DNA of 63,202 nt, counting the filler, from Globobulimina sp. (lineage: Eukaryota), in assembly GCA_003354225.1 (NCBI GenBank). It is 56 parts of 56 records of this genome, joined end to end, with 100 filler letters (N's around TTAATTAATTAA, not from the genome) between each part and the next. Parts side by side here need not be neighbours in the genome. Positions count along the whole stretch, not along the records: positions 5,656 to 6,686 come from PIVH01025325.1; 55 more parts are not named here. One strand, written 5' to 3'. The number at the start of each line of letters is the position of its first letter. Position 1 is the first letter of the stretch. Position numbers and translations under genes: made by a program. This document shows positions 5,656 to 6,788 of the stretch, piece after piece. The notes under the pieces are model-generated. The model ran no database searches and was not told where the DNA came from. It saw only the letters and a program-made list of their open reading frames with translations.

Positions 5656-6142
5656 TTACGAATTCAACACTATATTCATCTTTAATCTTCTCTCCCCGCG
5701 GATAAACCATGGCAAGGAGCGGCATACCCCATGTGCGTGCTTCATAGCTGACTTTTCCAAAATCATTCAGCATGATTTTTTCATCACCGTCTCCGATGTT
5801 GATATGAATGGATACAGCATCCGCACCAAGCTTTATCGCTTCTTCAACCGAGCATACAAGTGTTTTTGCATGGGGAAAGGGTGACAGACTTGTTGAGCCG
5901 GACAGATGAACGATGAGCCCGATATCTTTGCCGTGTCCGCTATGGCCTGACCCTCTGAGGCCCTTGTGCTCCGCAATGGCGTTTGCGCCTCCTTCGGGAA
6001 CATTGTTCACCGCCTTTTTCATATCAATAACACCTTCGATAGGTCCCACGGAAATACCGTGATCCATTGGAACGATAACTGCTCTTCCTGTATTTCTGTT
6101 AATAATACGTTCCATTCTGATCTGTTTCCCAATAATTGTCAT
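5656..6142 (-). CDS. aroA': 2-amino-3,7-dideoxy-D-threo-hept-6-ulosonate (ADH) synthase, DhnA-type class I aldolase, bacterial; 3'-truncated
   Basis: [75 protein letters not shown] upstream; the aromatic-rich leader favours ADHS over FBP aldolase. Confidence 0.85.
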
Positions 6143-6169
6143 GCGGAGTTCCTCCTTTGGTATTTGACG

Positions 6170-6210
6170 AAAAAAGGCCGTGAAACATAGTCGTTCTCAC
6201 GGCCTTTTTT
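6170..6210 (-). terminator. Intrinsic terminator 2 (segments 5:6) just upstream of aroA'
   Basis: AAAAAA-GGCCGUGA-loop-UCACGGCC-UUUUUU on the minus-strand transcript. Confidence 0.85.
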
Positions 6211-6216
6211 GAACAT

Positions 6217-6253
6217 AAAAAAACCGTGAGTTTTCTTGTCTACCCACGGCTTT
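6217..6253 (-). terminator. Attenuator terminator 1 (segments 3:4)
   Basis: AAAG-CCGUGGGU-loop-ACUCACGG-U7 on the minus-strand transcript. Confidence 0.8.
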
Positions 6254-6278
6254 CCTCGCTAATTATGTTGGTTTGATT

Positions 6279-6365
6279 TCAGCGCAGCCCAGGCAGACCC
6301 ATACTAAAATAATAGTAATAATACCTGGAAAATATAAAGTGTCTGCCTGAAAATCGGGCCATCAT
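6279..6365 (-). CDS. Putative Tyr/Phe-rich attenuator leader peptide (28 aa)
   Basis: MMARFSGRHFIFSRYYYYYFSMGLPGLR, with 5 consecutive Tyr and 4 Phe codons; AAGGA SD-like sequence upstream; precedes terminators and an aromatic biosynthesis gene. Confidence 0.8.
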   Translation of the reverse strand: MMARFSGRHFIFSRYYYYYFSMGLPGLR

Positions 6366-6788
6366 GAAATAGTCCTTGTCAAAATTCGTTATTGGCTTCT
6401 TTGTTCGTTCGATGCTAAAGTCAATCTCGCCGTTTTCATCCATACCACCGCCATTGAACCAATACATTAGGAGTGATATTCCCCATTTTTCATCGCTAGT
6501 AGAGGACTTAAATTTATTTTGTAACCAATCACCAACTATTTCATGTCCAAATGAGAATAAACATGGGCGAAGAAATATTCGATTAAAACTTGCATCATGT
6601 AAATCTATGGCTGCTTGTAACATTGGAGCCATTAGATTTATATCAAAGTTGTCATATAAATACAATAAATCAGCAACAAAACACTANNNNNNNNNNNNNN
6701 NNNNNNNNNNNNNNNNNNNNNNNNNNNNNNTTAATTAATTAANNNNNNNNNNNNNNNNNNNNNNNNNNNNNNNNNNNNNNNNNNNNAA

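Follow-up and report, generated by a model that had tools for sequence, protein, structure and literature searches.

A predicted aromatic amino-acid attenuator upstream of aroA' with two serial terminators in a six-segment hairpin chain

Introduction

The aromatic attenuators pheL, pheM, trpL and aroR are four-segment, single-terminator devices. Known examples are pheL-pheA, pheM-pheST and trpL-trp of Escherichia coli and aroR-aroF of Corynebacterium glutamicum, as given in the available text of PMC11802643. A longer chain is found in the his leader (hisL) of Salmonella and E. coli, for which the model of Johnston et al. from 1980, as outlined in the available part of PMC10989985, sets a terminating conformation, AB/CD/EF, against a read-through conformation, BC/DE, with the ribosome covering segment A. 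Two control points within a single leader, i.e., tandem attenuators, are described for Salmonella mgtCBR in the accessible part of PMC3641672. Here, we analysed a stretch of DNA of 63,202 nucleotides (nt) from the Globobulimina sp. assembly GCA_003354225.1 (hereafter, the window), in which aroA', the gene for 2-amino-3,7-dideoxy-D-threo-hept-6-ulosonate synthase (ADH synthase), is preceded by a leader that encodes a short aromatic peptide and two near-duplicate intrinsic terminators, T1 and T2, the arms of which can also pair with each other.

Two further described elements bear on this locus. The available text of PMC1173090 lists an aroA'-headed supraoperon of Desulfovibrio vulgaris with a database-derived 'putative attenuator', and the RF04312 trpB motif is presented, in the available part of PMC11109978, as a candidate riboswitch or attenuator of Firmicutes and Fusobacteria. 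Judging from its sequence and that of its relatives, the locus in the window is probably an aromatic amino-acid operon leader under ribosome-mediated transcription attenuation, with a relay that reaches both terminators.

Results

Two terminators and the hairpin between them

The locus lies on the contig at window positions 5656-6686 (PIVH01025325.1), and all features of interest are on the minus strand (Table 1). The transcript contains six complementary segments, numbered here from 5' to 3', which can pair as 1:2, 2:3, 3:4 (T1), 4:5 and 5:6 (T2). The sequence-only reading of this DNA had pointed to two near-duplicate terminators 6 nt apart, with the 3' arm of T1 complementary to the 5' arm of T2 and AACGAC behind the resulting hairpin, and each of these statements is exact. 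Energies and z-scores were obtained with ViennaRNA. For the 4:5 hairpin, none of 200 dinucleotide shuffles folds as well, and the AACGAC that follows it contains no U-run. We propose that this hairpin is the antiterminator of T2. The short distance to aroA' that had been claimed, under 30 nt, likewise stands, at 27 nt between the U-tract of T2 and the ATG, a stretch that contains AAAGGAGG.

The leader ORF (open reading frame), with 5 Tyr and 4 Phe codons among 28, is a short frame enriched in codons for the end products of the pathway, as in leader-peptide attenuators, and its stop codon lies 5 nt 3' of segment 2. Further hallmarks of such attenuators are seen as well: an intrinsic terminator lies between the ORF and the first gene, one strand is common to this terminator and the antiterminator, and the strand upstream of them is placed where a ribosome could mask it.

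In the mechanism that we propose, the Tyr/Phe-rich peptide of 28 codons would be translated while the leader is being transcribed. With aromatic aminoacyl-tRNAs plentiful, the ribosome would reach the UGA and mask segment 2, T1 (3:4) would form, and any polymerase escaping T1 would meet T2 (5:6), amounting to a double stop. With the ribosome stalled in the aromatic codon run, segment 2 would remain free and zip onto segment 3, giving a long antiterminator stacked on hairpin P2. Formation of 2:3 would leave segment 4 single-stranded, and the emerging segment 5 would be captured by segment 4 and the U-tract before segment 6 is made, such that T2 is pre-empted and aroA' is transcribed. The anatomy of the sequence, the conservation of the five helices, the aromatic ORF, and the operon context are observed directly, whereas we infer where the ribosome stands, that the two hairpins terminate transcription, and that 4:5 forms ahead of 5:6. 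On balance, we lean towards a device in which one ribosome-sensed event is relayed kinetically to two serial intrinsic terminators, so that repression would be the product of the two and induction would open both.

Table 1. Features of the aroA' leader and gene, in window coordinates
Feature	Position	Strand	Details
Shine-Dalgarno-like AAGGA of the leader ORF	6377-6373	minus	7 nt before the leader ATG
Leader peptide ORF, MMARFSGRHFIFSRYYYYYFSMGLPGLR	6279-6365	minus	28 codons; ATG at 6365, stop UGA at 6281-6279; from translation
Further Phe codons of the leader ORF	6353-6351, 6338-6336, 6332-6330	minus	From leader ORF translation
Putative regulatory codon run, Tyr15-Tyr19 and Phe20	6306-6323	minus	From leader ORF translation
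Segment 1, CAGGCAGAC	6341-6349	minus	Partner segment 2; 1:2 hairpin -18.5 kcal/mol, z -4.6
Segment 2, GGUCUGCCUGGGCU	6286-6299	minus	Partner segment 1 or segment 3 (antiterminator); 2:3 fold -20.9 kcal/mol
Hairpin P2	6257-6284	minus	Small hairpin at the tip of the 2:3 antiterminator helix; contains the stop codon
Segment 3 in its antiterminator use	6251-6238	minus	Extends beyond the T1 5' arm
T1 hairpin (3:4), CCGUGGG-UAGACAAGAAAA-CUCACGG	6249-6224	minus	AAAG before it; -9.8 kcal/mol, z -3.8
T1 U-tract, U7	6223-6217	minus	From sequence
T1-T2 spacer, AUGUUC	6216-6211	minus	6 nt; from sequence
A6 tract before T2	6210-6205	minus	From sequence
Alternative 4:5 hairpin, CUCACGG-U7 with A6GG-CCGUGAG	6230-6196	minus	14 continuous pairs; -16.2 kcal/mol, z -6.2
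T2 hairpin (5:6), GGCCGUGAGA-ACGACUAUG-UUUCACGGCC	6204-6176	minus	-15.5 kcal/mol, z -4.8
T2 U-tract, U6	6175-6170	minus	From sequence
Shine-Dalgarno GGAGG of aroA'	6155-6151	minus	From sequence
aroA' (ADH synthase), 5' part	5656-6142	minus	162 codons; ATG at 6142; gene cut at 5656 by the contig end

Five alternative helices are conserved among relatives

The 330 nt upstream of aroA' were collected from 160 related loci and, together with the window, searched with a leader hidden Markov model (HMM) built from 18 clear leaders. The model matches 120 of the 161 loci, comprising 86 with both terminators, 30 with T1 only, 3 in which the contig end leaves a piece of T2, and 1 with a decayed T2; 37 upstream regions have no match, mostly from more distant taxa including archaea and Desulfovibrionaceae, and 4 loci offer too little upstream DNA. 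An alignment of the 69 distinct leaders carrying T1 and T2 (A2; 262 columns, mean column identity 55%) underlies the comparisons that follow.

In each of the 69 leaders, the encoded peptide has 6 or more aromatic residues, bearing out the suggestion that this is a leader-peptide attenuator, and the stop codon falls in the same alignment column in 51 of them. Within the last 30 residues of each peptide, 647 of 1851 residues are aromatic (259 Phe, 332 Tyr, and 56 Trp). A marine-metagenome contig from run X2, about 93% alike over 6248-6395, carries an in-frame insertion of 3 nt in the Tyr run (window position 6315), so that the frame of the leader ORF is kept in this close relative. A separate observation concerns L045, where both terminators, 130 nt before the aroA' start, stand directly behind a TTGACA promoter and no aromatic leader ORF is seen; this locus may be decayed or rewired.

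The pairings 1:2, 2:3, 3:4, 4:5, and 5:6 are all conserved in A2. Paired cells amount to 96.4% for the 1:2 core (CAGGCA/UGCCUG; columns 17-22/89-94), 92.5% for the 2:3 antiterminator (GGUCUGCCUG with the T1 5' arm and loop; columns 85-94/150-159), 91.2% for the T1 helix, 92.3% for 4:5, and 95.6% for the T2 helix, with changes on both sides at 2 of 6, 4 of 10, 7 of 9, 7 of 12, and 7 of 10 pairs, respectively; in P2 (columns 102-105/137-140), 69.5% of the cells are paired and all 4 pairs have changed on both sides. Covariation across segments 3-6 had been named as a check in the sequence-only reading; both terminators contain pairs changed on both sides, and the covariation specific to 4:5 is modest. 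At least 5 U are present within 8 nt after the hairpin in 65 of the 69 leaders for T1 and in 66 for T2. The mean energies, in kcal/mol, are -14.9 for 1:2, -22.9 for 2:3 with P2, -15.0 for 3:4, -17.0 for 4:5, and -15.6 for 5:6, and the 4:5 hairpin is at least as stable as that of T2 in 46 leaders and within 3 kcal/mol of it in 64.

The observed pairing of 4:5 exceeds the 90.8 +/- 0.3% obtained with partners shuffled among sequences (0 of 500 shuffles reach the observed value), its 7 doubly changed pairs compare with 3.6 +/- 1.1 in the shuffles (2 of 500 reach 7), and sliding the partner columns by 1-3 lowers the pairing to 58.7% or less; such shuffles can, however, be beaten by related sequences without any structure. 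Tellingly, the common switch from U-A to C-G in T1, seen in 17 sequences, is tolerated through wobble by both neighbours, G94 in segment 2 and U222 in segment 5, and the reverse case, a C in segment 5 facing an A in segment 4, is rare (3/69). The 4:5-specific covariation is weak, and both the relatedness of the sequences and the close similarity of the two hairpins confound it. Of 7 cases of C at column 222, 4 have G at column 176, as judged by eye from A2, and concerted evolution of a tandem repeat would yield the same pattern.

One clade (L007, L105, L106, L117, L123, L126, L145, and L155; A2 columns 149/98) has GCCAUGG in segment 3, which gives an A.C mismatch in T1 and a U-A pair in the 2:3 antiterminator; in these leaders, segment 4 is fully complementary to segment 5.

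The compactness of this arrangement bears on the possibility that T2 answers a second signal of its own, for instance from a metabolite, a small RNA, or a protein, and that the leader holds two independent switches in tandem. Such attenuators do exist, with mgtCBR as an example in the available text of PMC3641672. In the window, however, the U-tract of T1 is followed by the A-tract of T2 after just 6 nt, and the distance between the two stems is 8-28 nt across the 69 leaders; there is no second ORF, no conserved sequence besides the hairpin arms is seen between the terminators in A2, and no Rfam family reaches its gathering score. We therefore consider a second signal quite improbable.

Leaders in which hairpin 1 lacks a U-tract

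An argument for a relay comes from relatives in which the first hairpin is not terminator-like. The two Desulfobotulus leaders (L022 and L057) retain the ORF and all helices, 4:5 included, and have a single U in the 8 nt after hairpin 1, leaving hairpin 2 as the only predicted terminator. A similar arrangement recurs in another class, as defined by GTDB for the genome behind L051, for which 18 genomes with 21 loci were considered; 15 loci read as tandem, and a motif-based parser resolved 13. Of these 13 leaders, 8 have no more than 4 U in the 8-nt tail of hairpin 1, and all 13 have 5 or more in that of hairpin 2; the 4:5 hairpins range from -18.9 to -24.5 kcal/mol, and the two hairpins of a genome have a common core, which is either CCAUGG or CCGUGG depending on the genome. 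In leaders whose hairpin 1 is not followed by a usable U-tract, a ribosome on the aromatic ORF has one route only to the sole terminator, via 2:3, a free segment 4, and 4:5. In these sister lineages, as predicted from their sequences, the relay would be required.

Equilibrium and kinetics

Equilibrium partition functions were computed for the 69 leaders with segment 2 either masked, as by a ribosome at the stop codon, or free, in the latter case with the RNA extended to the end of segment 6. In the masked state, 68 of the 69 leaders form T1 and 68 form T2, so that the double stop foreseen in the sequence-only reading is reproduced at equilibrium.

The free state counts against a simple form of the proposed relay. 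In the window, the equilibrium probabilities are 0.86 for 2:3, 0.005 for 4:5, and 0.995 for 5:6, and no more than 20 of the 69 leaders give 4:5 a probability above 0.5, compared to 49 for 5:6. Given that T2 is preferred over 4:5 at equilibrium in the window, the relay must be kinetic. By this modelling, it would need 4:5 to form first, as it can because segment 6 is still untranscribed, and to last until the polymerase leaves the U-tract. The direct-path barrier from 4:5 to 5:6, estimated with findpath, is 11.0 kcal/mol in the window, with a median of 9.2, compared to a median of 17.5 kcal/mol for the passage from 2:3 to 3:4; just 2 of the 69 leaders have a higher barrier for the former step than for the latter. 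As a rough inference, the 4:5 barrier is of the order of the polymerase transit time but not comfortably above it, and segment 6 could invade the 4:5 helix quickly enough for T2 to form after all. Classical attenuators likewise rely on kinetic pre-emption of a more stable terminator. The earlier claim that a freed segment 4 disarms T2 is thus upheld in part: 4:5 is conserved and is the sole route where hairpin 1 lacks its U-tract, but the equilibrium in the window and the modest 4:5 covariation do not bear it out.

These same results are what one would expect if T2 were a plain fail-safe terminator unrelieved by 4:5, with T1 alone regulated and the 4:5 complementarity a by-product of the origin of T2 as a tandem copy of T1; the equilibrium preference for T2 (the window; 49 of 69 leaders), the low barrier, the near-identity of the two hairpins, and the 30 leaders that have no T2 all fit this alternative, under which T2 would remove a fixed fraction of all transcripts. 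Yet such a fixed downstream stop would cut expression in both states and leave the regulation unimproved, and in L022, L057, and the 8 of 13 leaders of the other class, the conserved aromatic ORF has no terminator after it other than T2. In addition, the part of the T2 stem in common with 4:5 keeps its sequence, whereas the distal pairs vary more on both sides (12 and 9 cells at columns 225/240 and 226/239). We hold the fail-safe explanation to be unlikely, if by no means negligible, and regard the relay as the best available explanation for a second terminator inside the attenuator, one that, in the lineage of the window, rests on kinetics.

Leaders without T2

The 30 leaders that lack T2 include the closest relative, L081 (82% amino-acid identity), and show that T2 is dispensable, which is a further point against the relay. 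Where T2 exists, T1 is weaker: with its A/U extension, its mean energy is -19.0 kcal/mol (n=69) versus -23.8 kcal/mol in the 27 distinct T1-only leaders (Mann-Whitney p ~1e-6, uncorrected for relatedness). This difference fits a duty shared by both terminators.

In L081 itself, the single terminator, 100 nt before the aroA' start, combines a T1-like 5' arm and loop with T2-like GGCC...GGCC ends, and this hybrid hairpin looks like the remnant of a tandem pair from which a deletion between the two repeated cores had removed the intervening part. In several other single-terminator leaders (L166, L167, and L170, and Desulfovibrionaceae leaders such as L046, L047, L056, L062, and L079), a complement of the 3' arm follows 10-20 nt after the U-tract (e.g., CCGCCGG versus CCGGCGG), and in L166, L167, and L170 an element with CCUCC comes after this complement, 30-40 nt before the Shine-Dalgarno sequence. 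Such arm complements may pass the signal on to translation instead of to a second terminator. Overall, the segment-5-like complement after T1 in single-terminator leaders is weak (z of -2 or below in 10 of 39, median z -1.1).

The tandem pair is real and belongs to the leader

A check of the duplication against reads had been called for at the outset. A Logan contig of run X1 covers 5999-6259, across both T2 and T1, with 1 difference; X1, which holds 57% of the words of the stretch, is probably the source sample and so represents another assembler rather than independent data. Its contigs cover neither 5901-5970 nor 6399-6686, and the other runs yield only short pieces, 90-95% alike. The same tandem pair is present in 85 other loci from independent assemblies. 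The motif GCCGTGG-N6-24-CCACGGC occurs once, at the leader, in the 2.3-Mb genome behind L001 (G003), compared to 1 occurrence for the reversed control, and 5 times in the 4.0-Mb genome behind L022 (G004), compared to 2 for the control; by these counts, it is not a dispersed repeat. Comparison of assemblies and loci confirms that the T1/T2 pair is real and not an assembly duplication.

The hairpins could still be ordinary bidirectional terminators of an upstream gene, unrelated to the control of aroA'. A 128-codon ORF of the window, of which the leader peptide represents the last 28 codons, does run into the hairpin region, and T2, with A- and U-tracts on its two sides, is terminator-like on the plus strand as well. 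This frame has 41 homologues at E up to 0.001, mostly of ~200-216 aa (amino acids), that align only to its first 70-110 residues, the alignment beginning at their residue ~67; they belong to no Pfam family. The contig of X1 follows the window over 6253-6398 and then departs into other sequence, with TTGACA ~60 nt before the small leader ORF on the minus strand; in relatives, a TTGACA-type promoter and a short aromatic ORF are found directly upstream, at the matching place. Considering that the long ORF is a fragment by homologue alignment, that the X1 contig leaves the window at 6398, and that the motif is not dispersed and the pair recurs in so many loci, we regard ordinary terminators of an upstream gene, a dispersed palindrome, or an assembly duplication as extremely improbable explanations.

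The 128-codon ORF was also considered as a real gene owning these terminators and was ruled out on the same homologue alignments and the departure of the X1 contig. Window positions 6399-6686 hold a gene fragment from a ~210-aa family, matching homologue residues from ~67 to 140-175, which is fused in frame to the leader peptide. Beyond 6398, the window contig is probably chimeric or represents a strain variant.

The aroA' gene and its surroundings

The window consists of about 56 contigs of 1029-1031 bases each, seemingly in size order, joined by 100-base linkers (44 N + TTAATTAATTAA + 44 N). The contigs adjoining the locus are unrelated to it, so gene neighbourhood across the linkers is meaningless.

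The gene downstream of the leader is, by its family matches, aroA', in agreement with the initial identification. The encoded 162 residues represent the N-terminal part of a DhnA-type aldolase (PF01791, E 1.3e-38); owing to the missing third of the protein, the matches to NF005556 (E 7.5e-69) and TIGR01949 (E 9.8e-63) both score under the curated cut-offs, which full-length relatives pass. The closest relatives, with amino-acid identity of at most 82%, come from metagenome-assembled genomes labelled Desulfobacterales or Desulfobacteraceae and from metagenome contigs. In relatives, the leader is followed by the genes for ADH synthase, 3-dehydroquinate (DHQ) synthase II, and chorismate mutase/prephenate dehydratase, in the order aroA'-aroB'-pheA...

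Discussion

For a large group of uncultured sulfate reducers, the leader analysed here probably represents the means by which entry into the alternative (aroA'/aroB') shikimate route is controlled. On the control of this entry, the only published record that we found is the database listing for Desulfovibrio vulgaris in the available text of PMC1173090. Across the Desulfobacterales and at least one other class, the wiring appears, from the comparison of leaders, to have arisen when the middle hairpin in a chain of the his kind gained (or lost) a U-tract. The relatives thereby form a natural series of one device: in some members, but not in others, the middle hairpin is a terminator, and the second terminator is retained by some and lost from others. 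Such a series makes it testable whether a co-transcriptional folding decision is relayed along a hairpin chain, and whether a second terminator provides dynamic range or only lowers the leak. The design may also serve for synthetic low-leak attenuators.

Among Rfam families, none, including Phe_leader, Trp_leader, and His_leader, reaches its gathering score in the window or in 20 related loci. In a permissive scan of the window, the best sub-threshold match is to the trpB motif, at 26.5 bits against a gathering score of 59, the other matches being to families of miRNAs, snoRNAs, and small RNAs. Similar to the trpB motif as described in the accessible part of PMC11109978, the leader has a first hairpin, the 3' shoulder of which is a possible antiterminator, followed by an intrinsic terminator, and the model aligns over its full length to 6349-6212. 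The trpB motif is found in other phyla and has one terminator, and none of the 20 related loci scores at gathering; the resemblance extends to the general shape only.

In mgtCBR and in tandem riboswitches, each attenuator has its own sensor, i.e., two ORFs or two aptamers, to go by the available text of PMC3641672, whereas here one ORF would serve both terminators via shared arms. The zipper-type attenuator of pLS20, as presented in the available part of PMC13401043, is another type of device. In the literature outside subscription journals, we found no description of a leader-peptide attenuator whose two terminators are linked. The listed D. vulgaris supraoperon resembles the present locus in having aroA' at its head, in belonging to the same broad group of sulfate reducers, and in the predicted attenuation; the available text of PMC1173090 describes no leader peptide, structure, or second terminator, and the Desulfovibrionaceae loci that we examined have one terminator.

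Closer parallels are offered by the aromatic attenuators. As in pheL, pheM, trpL, and aroR (PMC11802643, available text), stalling at aromatic codons would choose between an antiterminator and an intrinsic terminator before aromatic biosynthesis genes, and, as in aroR, the leader precedes the entry enzyme of the pathway. Unlike in these systems, the entry enzyme is the alternative ADH synthase (aroA') rather than DAHP synthase, and neither Phe_leader nor Trp_leader of Rfam matches the window.

The closest counterpart in architecture is the his leader. It was initially thought that a six-segment chain extends the classical repertoire; this does not hold, given that the his leader, in the available text of PMC10989985, already alternates between AB/CD/EF and BC/DE. 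The features in common are a leader peptide with regulatory codons, three successive hairpins, and a signal passed along a six-segment chain to the last hairpin, and here, too, the three hairpins and the alternative BC/DE pairings are present, all five helices being conserved. There is no sequence relationship, in that His_leader has no match in the window at E up to 10. The regulatory codons also differ, being for Tyr, Phe, and Trp, as does the operon, aroA'-aroB'-pheA. The main difference concerns the middle hairpin: in his, by the same partial account, the U-run follows EF only, whereas here CD (T1) is followed by U7 in the window and, in 65 of the 69 leaders, by 5 or more U within 8 nt, resulting in two serial terminators. 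The his-type state, CD without a U-run, is absent from the window and is found in L022, L057, and 8 of the 13 leaders of the other class. The leader, then, is a variant of the his-type six-segment attenuator and not a new class, the new part being that CD is itself a terminator.

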